Origin: a virus
Strand: one strand, 5' to 3'
DNA length: 5,875 nt
Virus genome (UHGV): UHGV-0260700
Shown: in pieces, positions 1 to 5,875 of the stretch
Position numbering within the stretch: the first letter of the stretch is position 1
How the letters are laid out: every line of letters starts with the position of its first letter
Translations under genes and position numbers: made by a program
Notes under the pieces: model-generated
Seen by the model: the letters and a program-made list of their open reading frames with translations, nothing else
Database searches by the model: none
What the model was told of the DNA's origin: nothing

Positions 1-206
1 GGTTTCATGGGCAGAGCTTTGATCTTAATAAAACGCAAGTTCAGACTCACCGTGCGAGATTACGAAAAATCGGTATTGATATTGCTCAAAAATGCAATAT
101 TGCTAAGTTCTCTCCGGTTATCATGAAAGAAAGCCGCGAAATTCATGTTTCACAATGCGTTATTCCAGACTGGTATATTAAACCTTCTCATTTACGTGTA
201 GCTTAA
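1..206 (+). CDS. 3' end of replication initiator gene (gII, with nested gX), partial, start outside window
   Basis: Frame starting at position 3 is open to TAA at 204..206 (67 codons, ends ...DWYIKPSHLRVA). Assigned by synteny only, immediately upstream of the gV-position gene; I did not recognise the sequence itself. Confidence 0.55.
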   Translation, partial: FHGQSFDLNKTQVQTHRARLRKIGIDIAQKCNIAKFSPVIMKESREIHVSQCVIPDWYIKPSHLRVA

Positions 207-222
207 AACAGGAATATTAATT

Positions 223-540
223 ATGTCTCACTACGGATTATTTGTTAAAGGTAAAATGCTTGGTTCGCGCCAGCGCAATAAGATGAATAGTGATTTAGTT
301 TATAATGAAATTGGCGTCGGCATGGAAAAGCCTGATGGTTTTGGCGGCACGAAAACAGAACAATTAATTATTCGTGTTTCTTCTTCTCTCGTTAAGGCTG
401 GCGTAATGAATCAGGCTAATAGCCTTATTGGTAAACTGGTTCAGGTTCCTGTCTATGCTAAAGCATGGTCTTTTGACGGAAAGGATGGCATTACATACAA
501 CCTTTCTAATGATGGTGGTATTAGCGAAATAAAGGTTTGA
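223..540 (+). CDS. Putative ssDNA-binding protein at the gV position (105 aa)
   Basis: ORF 223..540 with AGGA 9 nt upstream of ATG; sits between the replication gene end and gVII/gIX/gVIII as gV does in Ff phages. Longer than Ff gVp (87 aa) and no similarity to M13 or IKe gVp that I can see; function is by position only. Confidence 0.55.
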   Translation: MSHYGLFVKGKMLGSRQRNKMNSDLVYNEIGVGMEKPDGFGGTKTEQLIIRVSSSLVKAGVMNQANSLIGKLVQVPVYAKAWSFDGKDGITYNLSNDGGISEIKV

Positions 541-542
541 CT

Positions 543-629
543 ATGGATGATGTTATTCAGGTTTTGATAGCGTCTGGCATCGTTATTTCTTTTGGCCTCG
601 GCGCGATTACTGCGGGGGTCTTTCGTTAA
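543..629 (+). CDS. VII: Minor coat protein pVII-like (28 aa, MDDVIQVLIASGIVISFGLGAITAGVFR)
   Basis: Not in the ORF track (too short). ATG at 543 three nt after the gV stop, AAGG upstream; small hydrophobic peptide like M13 pVII (33 aa); stop TAA 627..629 overlaps the next start. Confidence 0.6.
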   Translation: MDDVIQVLIASGIVISFGLGAITAGVFR

Positions 630-724
630 TGTATATCGTTTATTTCTTCGGGGCTTATACCTTTGGTTTTGCCCTTTTCTATGCGGTCGGTTCATTTAAA
701 TCATTTTCTGACCGATTAATGTAA
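629..724 (+). CDS. IX: Minor coat protein pIX-like (31 aa, MYIVYFFGAYTFGFALFYAVGSFKSFSDRLM)
   Basis: Not in the ORF track. ATG 629..631 overlaps the gVII stop as TAATG; hydrophobic peptide ending ...DRLM, compare M13 pIX ...FTRLMETSS; stop TAA 722..724. Confidence 0.6.
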   Translation: MYIVYFFGAYTFGFALFYAVGSFKSFSDRLM

Positions 725-743
725 CCTTAATGGAGTTATTTCT

Positions 744-986
744 ATGAAAATTCTGTCTACTGTTAAATCTAAAGTTGCTCTTGCTTCAACTGCGCTTTTT
801 GTTTCTGCAAGTTCTTTTGCGGCTGACGGCGCTACAGGCGGTACTGATTATGCAGGTCAGGCAATGGACGCTTTGTTGACTCAGGCAAATGATCTCATTG
901 GTAAAGTATGGCCTGTTGTTGTTGCTGTAGTTGGCGCAGGCCTGGCTATTCGTCTTTTTAAAAAGTTCTCTTCCAAAGCAGTTTGA
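744..986 (+). CDS. VIII: Major coat protein pVIII precursor (80 aa)
   Basis: GGAG 8 nt upstream of ATG; signal peptide ending SFA followed by an acidic amphipathic N-terminus, a hydrophobic core (VWPVVVAVVGAGLAI) and a basic C-terminus RLFKKFSSKAV, the last matching the IKe coat protein C-terminus and close to M13 (KLFKKFTSKAS). Confidence 0.92.
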   Translation: MKILSTVKSKVALASTALFVSASSFAADGATGGTDYAGQAMDALLTQANDLIGKVWPVVVAVVGAGLAIRLFKKFSSKAV

Positions 987-1001
987 TTTCCATTTTACAC
1001 A

Positions 1002-1020
1002 GGGGCAGATTCTGCCCCTT
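1002..1020 (+). terminator. Hairpin terminator after gVIII
   Basis: GGGGCA(1002..1007) / TGCCCC(1013..1018) stem with loop GATTC, followed by TT; the same position as the strong terminator after gene VIII in Ff phages. The T-tract is short. Confidence 0.45.
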
Positions 1021-1037
1021 CATCTAAGCGGGTCATT

Positions 1038-2252
1038 ATGAAACGCAAATTATTAGCCCTTTTATTTATTATTTCTCCAGCTTCTCATGCTGCTATATGG
1101 GATAGTTTAAGCCAAAGCACTATGGAGGTTGATGTTTGGTCTGTAAGAAACGAGACCACACATAAACAATATATAAATTCTGATATGCTTGCTTCTGGTT
1201 GTTCTCAAGCAAAAGAAAAGGCTAACGATTTTTTCACGAGAACCAAATCAATTTTTCAGGATGTGTATCCGCCAAATGCTGAGTATAGATTAGTCCTTGA
1301 TGATTCTTGTTCGTTTAGTTTGCCACCGGGCGAAAAAGATAGCTCTTGGAGAATAGAGACTACAATTAATGCAGATGTTCAAGTTTCAGTTCCTGATGAA
1401 ACATCACCCGAACCTACACCAGAAGAAGTTTGTCAGACTAAACAACCTGAAGATGGTGTATTTAATAATGTTTTTTCTGATTCTGGCAATCGTTATATCA
1501 ATTATGATGGTTGTGAGTATGAAGCAACAGGGGTAATTGTTTGTCAAAGTGACGGTACTGTTTGTGCTGCTACGTGGAAACCAACTGGGCGTGTTTCAGA
1601 TGGTTCACATAATTCATCATCACCTGCCGATGATAATAATGATAATGGTTCAGAAAATGGTGGGTCAGAGGGTGGGGATGATGGTTCTGGCGGTGGTAAC
1701 AATAATTCAGGGGGGAGTTCTGGCGGCTCTTCATTAAGTAAGCAGGATATGATTGACGCAGTTAACTCCGGTGTATCTGGGGCTTCGTCTAATGTTGCTG
1801 ATGAGATAAGAAAGAAACTCTCTGAGCCTGACACGAGCTTTCAGGATAAAGAACATGCTGACGCGCAAAAATCTAAATACCTAAGTGATATAACTGATTC
1901 CCTTAACAATATTACACGTGGTGCTGGACGTTATGCAGATCCATCCCGTGGTGATTATTATGGGCAAGGTGATTCTGCTTTAGATAGTGCTACAAGCCTT
2001 GCAGAAAGCAACCTGGGTATTTCTAAAGATTCCAATGGGATTTGGGATTTATTTTTAAATGAAACTAATGCCTTGCCAAATGGTGATGGTTGTTCTGATT
2101 TTATTATGTTTCCCGGAGAAATTTACCAGATAGATATTCAATGCGATAAGTTGCAGTCAATTAAAGATGCACTTTCATGGGTGTTTTACTGCATGACATT
2201 TTGGTATGTCTTTACTTCATTAACATCCTTGCTTAGAAAAGGGAGTGAATAA
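1038..2252 (+). CDS. III: Minor coat / adsorption protein pIII (404 aa)
   Basis: Signal peptide [18 protein letters not shown]; internal motif [34 protein letters not shown] resembling the M13 N1 (TolA-binding) motif DRYANYEGCLWNATGVVVCTGDETQCYGTWVPIG; Gly/Ser/Asn/Asp linker; C-terminus [22 protein letters not shown]...[24 protein letters not shown] resembling the M13 pIII C-terminus. Confidence 0.92.
1590..1727 (+). repeat. Low-complexity Gly/Ser/Asn/Asp-rich linker region inside gIII
   Basis: Residues about 185..230 of pIII ([44 protein letters not shown]) encoded by repetitive ggt/ggc/aat/gat-rich DNA; this produces the artefactual ORFs on both strands in the track. Confidence 0.6.
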
Positions 2253-2593: not shown

Positions 2594-3688
2594 ATGGCGG
2601 TTCATGTAGTAACAGGTAAATTAGGCTCAGGCAAGACACTTGTTAGTGTTTCCAGAATACAGGAGAGACTTGCTAAGGGTTGTCCTGTTGCCACTAATCT
2701 TGACCTTAAATTGCATAATATGCCTATGGTTGGGCGTTATGCGAAAAAAACGCGCGTTATTCGCGTTCCTGACAAACCTTCATTAAATGATTTGCTGGCT
2801 ATTGGCATTGGAAACACATCTTACGATGAATCCCGTAATGGCCTCCTTGTACTTGATGAATGTGGTACTTGGTTTAATTCCCGCTCATGGGGTGATAAAG
2901 ACAGACAACCTGTTATTGACTGGTTTTTACATGCCAGAAAATTAGGCTGGGATATTATATTTTTGATTCAGGATATTTCGATAATGGATAAGCAAGCTCG
3001 TTTGGCGCTTGCTGAGCATGTTGTTTATTGTCGCCGTTCAGATAAATTAAACATTCCTTTTGTTGGCTCCATTATGAATTTGGTTTCAGGGGCACGATTT
3101 TCTTTACCAAAGGTACACTTTGGCATTGTCAAATATGGTGATAATGTTAATTCAATCACTGTTGATAAATGGATATATACAGGAAAATCTCTTTATTCTG
3201 CTTACAATACCAAACAAGCGTTCACAGATAATTATCCTCATGGCGCATTTTCGCTTTTGCCACCATTTATCACGCACGGTCAATTTTCTGTTCACAGAGG
3301 ATTTAATTATTATATGCGCCTCACTAAAATTTATTTTCGCAAATCGAACCGTCTTATATTAATGCTTTCTTTTTTGGCGCTGGGGCTTGGGCTTGGTTTC
3401 TGGCTCCAGTCTGGAAAGAATGTTGATGAAATCTCAGCTATTAAATCTGCTTATGCTGAACAGGCGAGGGCGGTAACGCCTGATTCGTCCAGTGACTTAC
3501 CCCGACTTTCTATTAATTCTTTTTCACAACTTGGCTTTGACGTTTCCGTTACGTTTGTTGATGCTAAAGGTATGAAATATCAGTATTTTGATTTGATTAA
3601 AGATGGTTATTCCGTTGATATTAAAGATGCCTGTCGTATTGTTATTAGAAAAGGTCGTTATTTACAGACTGTTACCTGTCAGGAGTAA
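2594..3688 (+). CDS. I: Assembly protein pI (Zot-like ATPase, 364 aa)
   Basis: ATG directly follows the gVI stop (TAAATG). N-terminus MAVHVVTGKLGSGKTLVSV with Walker A GKLGSGKT, then LLVLDECGTWFN and WFLHARKLGWDIIFL, all near-identical to M13 pI; C-terminal membrane segment present. Confidence 0.95.
   Translation: MAVHVVTGKLGSGKTLVSVSRIQERLAKGCPVATNLDLKLHNMPMVGRYAKKTRVIRVPDKPSLNDLLAIGIGNTSYDESRNGLLVLDECGTWFNSRSWGDKDRQPVIDWFLHARKLGWDIIFLIQDISIMDKQARLALAEHVVYCRRSDKLNIPFVGSIMNLVSGARFSLPKVHFGIVKYGDNVNSITVDKWIYTGKSLYSAYNTKQAFTDNYPHGAFSLLPPFITHGQFSVHRGFNYYMRLTKIYFRKSNRLILMLSFLALGLGLGFWLQSGKNVDEISAIKSAYAEQARAVTPDSSSDLPRLSINSFSQLGFDVSVTFVDAKGMKYQYFDLIKDGYSVDIKDACRIVIRKGRYLQTVTCQE
3314..3688 (+). CDS. 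XI: Putative pXI, in-frame internal initiation product of gI (124 aa)
   Basis: In-frame ATG at 3314 (MRLTKIYFRKSNRLILMLSFLALG...) just before the membrane segment, corresponding to the M13 pXI start (MKLTKIYLKKFSRVL...); GAGG about 13 nt upstream. Inferred by analogy only. Confidence 0.5.
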   Translation: MRLTKIYFRKSNRLILMLSFLALGLGLGFWLQSGKNVDEISAIKSAYAEQARAVTPDSSSDLPRLSINSFSQLGFDVSVTFVDAKGMKYQYFDLIKDGYSVDIKDACRIVIRKGRYLQTVTCQE

Positions 3689-3695
3689 TATTATT

Positions 3696-4961
3696 ATGCG
3701 CTCTGTTATTGTTGCTTTTTTATTTGCCTGTTCATTCTGCGTTTCTGCTGAAACTGTTAATTTAAATAATTCATCTGTTCGCTCATTTGTTCAGTGGTAT
3801 TCTTCAAAAACTGGCAAGCCTGTTATTGTTAATCCTGATGTTAAAGGAAACGTAACCGTATTTAATGCTGATGTTAATCCAACAAATATTGATGATTTCT
3901 TTAAGTCTGTTCTGAATGCTAACGGGTTTGTCATGCTTTCTGGCAATCCTGCGGTAGTCTCTTTGCCGTCTAAATTACCTTCACAGATGGTTTCGGGTTC
4001 CGATGATTCTGATAACCAGTCTTATGATACTTTTCCTTCTGAGCCATCTTACCAGCCAGTACCTGTGGCGCTTACGGTCAGAAATTTTAAGCTGACAAAA
4101 GTTAGATCGTCCGATGTTCAGCAACTGGTTAAAATTTATCTTGATTCTAATGGCGGTGGTAATGTCGTGGATTATCCAGGCAATAACTCGCTGATTGTTT
4201 CTGCGCCTGACGAGCTGCTGCCGGTTCTGTCCGATTTTATCAATTCTGTGGATGTTGCCCGTGACCAAGTATTGATTCAGTCGCTGATGTTTGAAACCAG
4301 CCTATCCGATGGTGTTGATTTGTCGTTTGCTGCGGGTTCTGCGTCTGGCCATAAGGTGGCGGGGGGCTTTAATACTTCTGCGCTCGGCAGTGCGCTTTCC
4401 ACGGCTGGCGGCTCTTTTGGTATTTTTGATGGTAACGTACTGGCTTTGTCTCTGCGTGCCGTTCAGAGCAATTCACGCTCTAAGGTGATTTCAACGCCGC
4501 GCATCCTTACTCAGTCCGGTCAGACGGGTTACATTTCTGTAGGTAAGAACGTGCCGTTTATCACCGGAAAGGTAACGGGCGAATCTGCCGGGGTAAATAA
4601 TCCGTTCCAGACTATCGAACGTCATGATGTGGGTGTTTCTCTCAAGGTAACGCCTGTTGTCATGGGTAACGGGCAATTAGTTCTGACTATCGACACTCGC
4701 GCCGATTCAATCAGCAATGATGACCAGGCATCCGATATTATTACTAATCAGCGCCAGATTCAGACTACTGTTCAGATTAAGGATGGTCAGACATTGTTGC
4801 TTGGTGGTCTTATTGATTCATCTTCCAGTAATGCTGACCGTTCAGTGCCTTTTATCAGTAAAATTCCTCTTATCGGCTGGCTTTTCACGAGTAAGGCTGA
4901 CAGCAATGAGCAGCGCATCATGTATGTTCTCCTGACCGCCCATATCATTCGCGCGCTGTAA
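3696..4961 (+). CDS. IV: Secretin pIV, outer-membrane export channel (421 aa)
   Basis: AGGAG 10 nt upstream of ATG 3696. Signal peptide MRSVIVAFLFACSFCVSA; strong similarity to M13 pIV throughout (VPFITGKVTGESAGVNNPFQTIER, DGQTLLLGGL, VPFISKIPLIGWLF). The track ORF from 3603 extends upstream into gI and is not the real start. Confidence 0.95.
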   Translation: MRSVIVAFLFACSFCVSAETVNLNNSSVRSFVQWYSSKTGKPVIVNPDVKGNVTVFNADVNPTNIDDFFKSVLNANGFVMLSGNPAVVSLPSKLPSQMVSGSDDSDNQSYDTFPSEPSYQPVPVALTVRNFKLTKVRSSDVQQLVKIYLDSNGGGNVVDYPGNNSLIVSAPDELLPVLSDFINSVDVARDQVLIQSLMFETSLSDGVDLSFAAGSASGHKVAGGFNTSALGSALSTAGGSFGIFDGNVLALSLRAVQSNSRSKVISTPRILTQSGQTGYISVGKNVPFITGKVTGESAGVNNPFQTIERHDVGVSLKVTPVVMGNGQLVLTIDTRADSISNDDQASDIITNQRQIQTTVQIKDGQTLLLGGLIDSSSSNADRSVPFISKIPLIGWLFTSKADSNEQRIMYVLLTAHIIRAL

Positions 4962-4965
4962 TGGG

Positions 4966-4999
4966 TTGCGGGATGGGTGCGTTAAGCCCCGTCCCGTAA
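4966..4999 (+). other. Imperfect hairpin immediately after gIV; candidate packaging signal and/or gIV terminator
   Basis: Arms 4969..4977 (cgggatggg) and 4988..4996 (cccgtcccg) pair with one T-G mismatch, loop about 10 nt; occupies the position of hairpin A (packaging signal) in the Ff intergenic region but is much shorter. Confidence 0.4.
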
Positions 5000-5039
5000 A
5001 CCATGAAGCGGCATCGTGTTTTCACCGTCTGTTTGTATT

Positions 5040-5220
5040 CTTTTACGCTTTTCTTCCTGTCTGCGTTCTCTGTGGCCTGATTCGTCCAGCAGAATGGCGG
5101 GGGTTCCCTTTAGGGTTCCGCTATTGTGCTTGACGACACGTTGCAAGATAACCTTATTGCGGGGTGATGGTTCACGCAGTGGGCCATCGCCCTGTAAAGC
5201 AGGTTTTTGTTTTTTGGTGT
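5040..5220 (+). other. Intergenic-region segment homologous to the Ff minus-strand replication origin
   Basis: 5099..5120 GGGGGTTCCCTTTAGGGTTCCG versus f1 GGGGGCTCCCTTTAGGGTTCCG; 5162..5194 GGGTGATGGTTCACGCAGTGGGCCATCGCCCTG versus f1 GGGTGATGGTTCACGTAGTGGGCCATCGCCCTG (one mismatch), followed by GGTTTTT. f1 sequence recalled from memory, not computed. Confidence 0.7.
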
Positions 5221-5252
5221 TACGTGGTCTGATACTGCGGGGATTTCCGAGG

Positions 5253-5270
5253 ATGCGCACTGGTGCGCAT
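5253..5270. repeat. Perfect 8-bp inverted repeat with 2-nt spacer overlapping the XerC arm of dif
   Basis: ATGCGCAC (5253..5260), spacer TG, GTGCGCAT (5263..5270); the arms are exact reverse complements. Confidence 0.8.
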
Positions 5271-5289
5271 AATGTATATTATGTTAAAT
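5262..5289. other. dif: dif chromosome-dimer resolution site (XerC/XerD target), prophage right attachment junction
   Basis: GGTGCGCATAATGTATATTATGTTAAAT is identical to the canonical 28-bp Escherichia coli dif (XerC arm GGTGCGCATAA, spacer TGTATA, XerD arm TTATGTTAAAT). Phage-like sequence ends here and the following DNA has host character. Confidence 0.85.
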
Positions 5290-5484: not shown

Positions 5485-5875
5485 CTATCTGGCGGCAATT
5501 ACCGCATCTGCAATTTCCACAAAACCAGCACCTCCCGGGCCACGGGTAATCCACTGCGGAGGTTTCGGGATTTGATCAAGGTAATCTGATACCGTGCTCA
5601 CTCCAACCGTATGTTCAAAGAATGAAAACATCGGCGCATCATTCGTCGAGTCGCCGCTATACAATACGGCAGAACGTTCGGCATCAATGTCGAGATCGTA
5701 AAAATCCCTGAGCACTCGTCGGGCCATAGATAACTTGTCATATTCTCCAGACCAGCCAAGAATCCAGAGATTGTTTACGGTGGTTGTAGCACCTGCTTGC
5801 GTCAATGCGTTAAGTATTAATGAACACTGATGGGCTTCTGGCGGTTTAGCAAAGGCAATGGACGTCATCCTGAAA
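5485..5875 (-). CDS. HAD-superfamily hydrolase (Cof-type phosphatase-like), C-terminal part; start lies beyond the window end
   Basis: Minus-strand ORF ending at TAG (5485..5487), open to the window edge; contains the HAD motif-IV-like YSGDSTNDAPMF. Codon usage and GC differ from the phage genes. Confidence 0.65.
   Translation of the reverse strand, partial: FRMTSIAFAKPPEAHQCSLILNALTQAGATTTVNNLWILGWSGEYDKLSMARRVLRDFYDLDIDAERSAVLYSGDSTNDAPMFSFFEHTVGVSTVSDYLDQIPKPPQWITRGPGGAGFVEIADAVIAAR

Follow-up and report, generated by a model that had tools for sequence, protein, structure and literature searches.

A predicted OB-fold protein of the PF17426 family in the gene V slot of a filamentous prophage

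What takes the place of gene V protein in a filamentous phage genome whose gene V slot holds a protein unlike that of M13 or IKe? We met this question in UHGV virus genome UHGV-0260700, in a 5,875-nucleotide stretch of DNA that was analysed as a whole (hereafter, the window). The gene at positions 223–540 of the window encodes a 105-amino acid protein – hereafter the gene V-slot protein – in the position where Ff-like phages encode their ssDNA-binding protein. A preliminary description, made from the sequence by eye, had offered two readings of this gene: a non-orthologous replacement of the ssDNA-binding and translational-repressor function, or a different small regulator in the same slot.

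Layout of the prophage

The window contains most of a filamentous prophage of the Ff/IKe/I2-2-like type. Its features are as follows.

3–206, plus strand: C-terminal end of gene II/X, replication protein (Pfam G2P_X_C, E 2.9e-17; phrog_702 replication protein, E 1.6e-15)
210–213, plus strand: Shine-Dalgarno-like AGGA, 9 nt before the ATG at 223, as read from the sequence
223–540, plus strand: gene V-slot gene, PF17426; 105-amino acid basic protein
538–546, no strand: homology breakpoint; DNA similarity to IKe and I2-2 starts here, at the gene V stop and gene VII start
543–629, plus strand: gene VII, minor coat protein (Pfam Inovirus_G7P_2, E 3.3e-12; 74% identity to IKe and I2-2 gene VII); the neighbour that defines the slot
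629–724, plus strand: gene IX, minor coat protein (phrog_28333, E 7.6e-9; 53–57% identity to I2-2 and IKe gene IX)
744–986, plus strand: gene VIII, major coat protein (Pfam Phage_coatGP8, E 5.4e-20)
1038–2252: gene III
2252–2593: gene VI
2594–3688: gene I
probably 3696–4961: gene IV, 421 amino acids, like close relatives
5485–5868, minus strand: HAD-IIB family hydrolase gene in the flanking DNA, continuing past the window end

The gene V-slot gene follows gene II/X and precedes genes VII, IX and VIII, in that order; in an Escherichia coli relative, PGAP annotation places G7P-2 3 nt past the gene V stop. The preliminary description had called the genes on both sides recognisably Ff-like. This holds well downstream, where the structural and assembly gene products from gene VII to gene IV are about equally similar to those of IKe and I2-2, with 41–75% amino acid identity. 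It holds loosely upstream, where the gene II/X C-terminus is recognised by the G2P_X_C profile listed above and aligns to IKe gene II with 28% identity over 43 amino acids.

The automatic ORF for gene IV opens at 3603, inside gene I. Because the gene IV product is 421 amino acids long in relatives, the true start is most likely the ATG at 3696 (MRSVIVAFLFACSF…, signal-peptide-like), 8 nt past the gene I stop. GC content rises from ~0.38 to 0.48–0.50 within the 3′ two-thirds of gene IV (window ~4000–5000) and stays high through the window end; a mosaic origin of gene IV is one possibility.

An E. coli-type dif site of 28 bp (GGTGCGCATAATGTATATTATGTTAAAT) is matched perfectly at window positions 5262–5289, and the similarity of the window to sister prophages (L021–L023; 96% DNA identity) ends at ~5294. 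We therefore place the junction with the host here, with the prophage integrated at dif (XerCD). The HAD-IIB stretch beyond it is 96% identical to genes of large Citrobacter, Klebsiella and E. coli plasmids. E. coli UPphi prophages are flanked by hipBA/ydeT instead, and this copy therefore lies in a different replicon or species. Prophages on E. coli chromosomes are ~90% identical to the window over genes III–IV, and correspond to the ‘UPphi’ group described previously (PMC7307601).

Only ~300 nt (window 4962–5261) separate the gene IV stop from dif. Two hypothetical genes located after gene IV in an E. coli UPphi prophage (L017, 8836–9630), named h1 and h2 in the UPphi paper, are missing from the window. 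Window positions 5053–5219 are 73% identical to IKe 6305–6465, annotated in the IKe record as minus-strand-origin stem-loops, and because of this identity the intergenic region between gene IV and dif probably holds the complementary-strand origin. A search for inverted repeats after gene IV with a 6-nt seed found none, an Rfam scan of the window returned no family, and a promoter and terminator scan of the window gave no enrichment relative to shuffles. Directly past gene VIII we observed a GC-rich hairpin (AGGGGCAG-att-CTGCCCCT, window 1001–1022), which the simple terminator scan missed because its T-run is short; in the IKe record, a stem-loop and potential terminator are annotated at the matching place past gene VIII.

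Two further observations concern genes III and II. The N-terminal half of gene III (window 1056–1895) has little or no DNA similarity to an otherwise 84–90%-identical E. coli UPphi prophage – the sole match is 76% over 1385–1588 – and a Gly/Ser/Asn-rich linker (residues ~190–225) comes after the N-terminal part of the protein. The missing similarity suggests that this half may be a swapped receptor-binding region. Gene II of the closest relatives (L021 6869–7984; L023 591–1706) encodes 371 amino acids with G2P_X_C as the sole Pfam domain on record, and is without the Phage_CRI N-terminal domain found in gene II of other PF17426-bearing contigs. The N-terminal nuclease part of gene II in these relatives may be divergent or of a different family.

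Family membership and predicted structure

The gene V-slot ORF runs from the ATG at 223 to the TGA at 538–540. Homologues align to its N-terminus from residue 1–5, and this conservation confirms the start codon. Compared with the 72%-identical homologue from an E. coli prophage, the gene has a dN/dS of ~0.11 (with dS saturated), and is under purifying selection. A chance ORF or miscalled gene is suggested by the small size of the gene and by nothing else; this reading is refuted by the dN/dS value, meets further opposition from 156 clusters of homologues in public data, a Pfam match at 4e-40 and a confident structure model, and has in our estimate next to no probability.

By sequence, the gene V-slot protein is no orphan but a member of a catalogued family. 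Its Pfam match is PF17426, named ‘Putative_G5P’, with an E value of 4.4e-40 (136.6 bits, against a cutoff of 25). The match is above the gathering threshold and full-length – residues 3–104 on model positions 2–108 of 108. It also matches phrog_1547 (E 3.4e-43), which PHROGs labels ‘unknown function’; an NCBIfam search with the protein returned no family. The gene V product of phage I2-2 (NP_039617) is 45.1% identical over 97% coverage (tblastn E 1e-23; blastp E 3.9e-32). The two proteins are alike in length class (105 vs 108 amino acids) and in their slot between gene II/X and gene VII. I2-2 differs in being a non-integrating phage, whereas the window copy lies in a dif-integrated prophage, and the gene II C-terminus of the window differs from that of I2-2.

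NCBI proteins 98% and 72% identical to the gene V-slot protein are named ‘DNA-binding protein’ – in the case of the 72%-identical homologue, which is of the E. coli UPphi type, by PGAP. In a set of 1.84 billion representatives, the family forms 156 clusters at 50% identity. Distant members (25–35% identity) occur in inoviruses from human and lemur mouths, in inoviruses and prophages of Pseudomonas, in a Terasakiella contig and in numerous metagenome contigs. As the family name implies, PF17426 proteins would bind ssDNA. The Pfam name is itself ‘putative’, and we found no experimental, biochemical or structural work on any PF17426 member or I2-2-type gene V protein in the searchable literature. 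The PF17426 profile also matches very large proteins (P0081, P0141, P0155, P0170, P0189, P0190 and P0192; up to 4298 amino acids) through many short repeated stretches at profile positions ~20–60, with 21 of them in P0081 (4298 amino acids), and five family members give weak matches to NosD, a beta-helix repeat. These matches are probably compositional or repeat noise, and both the large repetitive proteins and the weak NosD matches were left out of the family alignment.

We modelled the gene V-slot protein with AlphaFold2, using as input a 73-sequence alignment made up only of the window protein and proteins from homology searches. The model (mean pLDDT 90.2, pTM 0.80) predicts, with high confidence, an OB fold in the canonical order b1-b2-b3-alpha-b4-b5: strands b1 (residues 6–19), b2 (26–37) and b3 (43–51), a helix (54–67), and strands b4 (72–84) and b5 (87–94). 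The preliminary description had proposed looking for an OB fold by structure prediction, and the confident OB model, with SSB and PriB as its nearest neighbours, answers that proposal. SSB chains account for almost all of the 50 best Foldseek matches in the PDB (E ~1e-4, TM ~0.5); a PriB chain and three editosome OB chains are also among the 50. The best viral structural matches are to phage SSBs, to a DUF3127 protein and to the SSB of Thermus inovirus OH3.

The best structural matches overall are the OB domains of bacterial and mitochondrial SSB, SsbB and PriB proteins (for example PDB 1EYG, 1QVC, 3VDY, 6CQK and 1WOC), which have the b1-b2-b3-alpha-b4-b5 topology in common with the model over ~90–105 residues. 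The b2-b3 and b4-b5 loops are much shorter in the model than in cellular SSBs. Because the gene V-slot protein stops 11 residues past b5 (…GGISEIKV, ending at residue 105), it is also missing the disordered linker and the acidic C-terminal tip (…DDDIPF) with which cellular SSBs recruit partners. Unlike cellular SSBs, it is a product of the replication module of an inovirus.

Sequence comparison with SSBs gave nothing significant. PF00436 (SSB) had no listed match at E<=10 to the query or the 73 members of the family alignment and none at E<=1 among 143 members, and hhalign against the N-terminal domain of E. coli SSB returned a probability of 0.5%. Searching PDB sequences returned only noise (E ~1), whether the query was the protein alone or an 11-sequence profile. 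A deep profile searched against the PDB gave a marginal match to PrgE of pCF10 (PDB 8S4S; E 0.025), and PF24083 (Phage_ssDNA_bind) and DUF3127 matched a few family members weakly. These echoes point towards non-canonical OB-type ssDNA binders of plasmids and phages, but all of the matches are below significance, and we do not claim membership in any of the three groups. The marginal echoes lie over b4-b5 of the gene V-slot protein, which is, like PrgE and the PF24083 and DUF3127 proteins, a small tail-less OB protein of a mobile element.

Conservation across the family fits an OB ssDNA-binding protein. The glycines at positions 10 and 14, in the strongly bent b1, are present in 100% and 96% of members. 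Position 40, at the tip of the b2-b3 loop (F40 here), is aromatic in 96%; positions 78 and 82 in b4 (Y78 and W82 here) are aromatic in 71% and 76%, and positions 16 and 71 (R16 and K71 here) are basic in ~70%. W82, near the end of b4, and F40 in the b2-b3 loop may occupy the places where E. coli SSB uses W88 and W40/W54.

The preliminary description had seen no similarity between the 105-amino acid protein and the gene V proteins of M13 and IKe, and BLASTP, Pfam, HMM and profile-profile comparison all bear this out. BLASTP against the IKe protein found only a 13-residue match (E 0.096 in a single comparison), and the M13 protein, whose sequence was checked against its record, gave nothing up to E 100. 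Neither the window nor I2-2 yielded a match to a profile HMM built from nine diverse Ff-type gene V proteins (best E 2–5, the window's best being 5), and PF02303 is absent among the Pfam matches listed for the query, for the 73 members (0/73) and for the 143 members (0/143). Profile-profile comparison with the Ff family by hhalign returned a probability of 0.5% from a 73-sequence profile and 10% from a 143-sequence profile.

Could the gene V-slot protein nonetheless be a true, extremely diverged orthologue of the Ff/IKe protein, rather than a descendant of another OB lineage? The Ff/IKe gene V proteins (PF02303 Phage_DNA_bind; PDB 1VQB and 8ACZ) have the genomic slot in common with it, are similar in size and basic charge (pI 9.2 for M13 gene V protein, 9.4 here), and are, like the model, five-stranded OB-type barrels (PMC9837838). 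The 43 columns of the 143-sequence hhalign match pair residues 15–57 with M13 residues 13–54, approximately b1–b3 in register, although at that 10% probability only. Ff gene V protein has eight strands and two 3-10 helices, and no alpha-helix (PMC9837838), so the predicted b3-b4 helix of the gene V-slot protein is absent from it. The gene V-slot protein departs from this all-beta architecture, and the Ff DNA-binding hairpin loop (13–31) and dyad loop (68–78), together with their defining residues, have no evident counterpart in it. Ff gene V protein is not among the top structural neighbours listed for the model. The helix and the SSB-like neighbours point to a different OB lineage, and we regard orthology with the Ff protein as improbable. 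Across these analyses we found neither clear gene V protein homology by profile search nor an unrelated fold with no link to nucleic-acid binding, the two outcomes that would have spoken against the preliminary description.

Slot conservation, exclusivity and role

In every case examined, the PF17426 gene is downstream of a replication gene and upstream of small coat genes, beyond which follow an adsorption protein gene, a pVI-like gene and Zot/pI. This arrangement is conserved in I2-2, Pseudomonas phage 42-1, D_HF2_144, blackswan219-1, and Terasakiella and metagenome contigs; in two contigs a single small ORF separates the PF17426 gene from the replication gene. The two gene V types do not occur together. 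Tblastn matches of the gene V-slot protein and of IKe gene V protein among phage records do not overlap, and profile HMMs of both families found exactly one type in each genome or locus examined. The PF17426 type and the Ff-type gene V protein are mutually exclusive in the genomes examined.

I2-2, complete at 6.7 kb and viable as a phage, is informative here. Ten features are given in its record, with gene VI unannotated (11 genes), and all genes other than gene V have Ff counterparts, so that there is no second candidate ssDNA-binding gene. We assign the gene V-slot protein the role of gene V protein because I2-2 has no alternative supplier of this essential function, because the two types are mutually exclusive, and because ssDNA-binding proteins have the fold predicted for it. 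The gene at 223–540 is, with good probability, the gene V analogue of the prophage: a stand-alone basic OB protein of the I2-2/UPphi/Ypfphi type that replaces Ff gene V protein, with which it would share the presumed role of coating plus-strand ssDNA ahead of assembly. That it binds ssDNA, and does so cooperatively, is what we infer, as are its oligomeric state and any repression of gene II and gene X translation; the gene II leader lies outside the window.

An OB protein of this kind could in principle do something else – act as a protein-protein adaptor, as a regulator of gene II or as an accessory factor for XerCD/dif integration – with host SSB doing the job of gene V protein. The family is present in the non-integrating I2-2, and it never accompanies an Ff-type gene V protein, where an accessory factor would be expected to co-occur with it. 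The aromatic and basic positions that are conserved and exposed fit nucleic-acid binding, and ssDNA binders make up the overwhelming majority of the top structural neighbours. Read from its sequence, the protein lacks a signal peptide and cysteine pairs, which speaks against a toxin-like role. We consider such another role very unlikely. The different small regulator of the preliminary description is likewise disfavoured, since the protein has no HTH or regulator signature and I2-2 has no other gene V protein candidate. Its first reading, that a non-orthologous protein has taken over the ssDNA-binding function, has the best support given the OB fold, the gene V slot and the exclusivity of the two types, with qualifications: ssDNA binding and translational repression are predicted functions, a deep common ancestry of the OB barrels is possible, and the protein was already recognised as PF17426 ‘Putative_G5P’.

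By analogy with the Ff paradigm, and drawing on the fold and the position of the gene, the gene V analogue would act as follows. It would be produced from the replication operon directly after gene II/X, accumulate, and coat new plus-strand ssDNA. Binding would use the groove formed by b2, b3 and b4 together with the b2-b3 loop, which bears the conserved aromatics F40, Y78 and W82 and the basic residues R16 and K71; the aromatics may stack on bases and the basic residues may touch the backbone. Coating would block conversion of the strand to the replicative form, and the resulting rod-shaped nucleoprotein would be handed to the pI/pIV export machine, where pVIII would displace the gene V-slot protein.

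Module exchange and its meaning for filamentous phages

We mapped where the similarity of the window to other filamentous phages begins. In blastn comparisons, similarity to IKe starts at position 538 and similarity to I2-2 at position 546. Upstream of this joint, the window gene V matches I2-2 only, and the gene II C-terminus matches neither IKe nor I2-2 well; in the window, genes II and V do not co-vary with those of I2-2.

Two lemur oral inoviruses provide the clearest example of an exchange. Dulem virus 55 (L006, 602–915) carries the PF17426 type and Dulem virus 57 (L010, 2757–3070) the Ff type. The two are 91% identical at the DNA level from ~20 nt before the gene V stop onward, and unrelated over gene V and the end of the replication gene. 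The unit exchanged between them is the end of the replication gene plus gene V, not gene V alone, a further qualification to the replacement reading. In a published comparison, likewise, UPphi901 and Ypfphi have a gene II plus gene V module in common at >85% identity, with <15% similarity of this module to that of IKe and M13 (PMC7307601).

Because the breakpoints, the Dulem 55/57 pair and the published module agree, we interpret gene V here as a family-level replacement by recombination. The replacement gene V would arrive by recombination with a breakpoint at the gene V/gene VII junction and, as the Dulem pair suggests, may come together with its cognate replication gene. The 1992 paper on the I2-2 genome reportedly already described module evolution involving the replication region.

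The gene V-slot gene is a case of ordinary module swapping – ordinary because the family is catalogued and the predicted fold is SSB-like – and no new kind of system is revealed. A bolder reading is that PF17426 represents a second, independently recruited solution to the gene V protein problem in the Inoviridae: an SSB/PriB-like OB domain from a cellular or plasmid source, travelling with a particular class of gene II replication initiators and forming a pre-assembly nucleoprotein filament unlike the dimer rod of Ff gene V protein. We put this forward tentatively, as possible rather than probable.

That the family is named as a putative gene V protein (PF17426), and that genes II and V of this group are dissimilar to those of IKe and M13 (PMC7307601), was already known. 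Our analysis adds the confident SSB-like OB model, the test of mutual exclusivity and the mapping of the breakpoints. The main value of these results lies in annotation, as they provide a firmer label for a family found in UPphi/Ypfphi prophages of E. coli, Salmonella, Yersinia pestis and Pseudomonas. They also raise the question of what shape the pre-assembly ssDNA rod takes when it is built on an SSB-like OB domain rather than on the Ff gene V protein dimer. For filamentous phages more broadly, the locus offers a clean example of modular evolution, with the recombination joint at the gene V/gene VII boundary.
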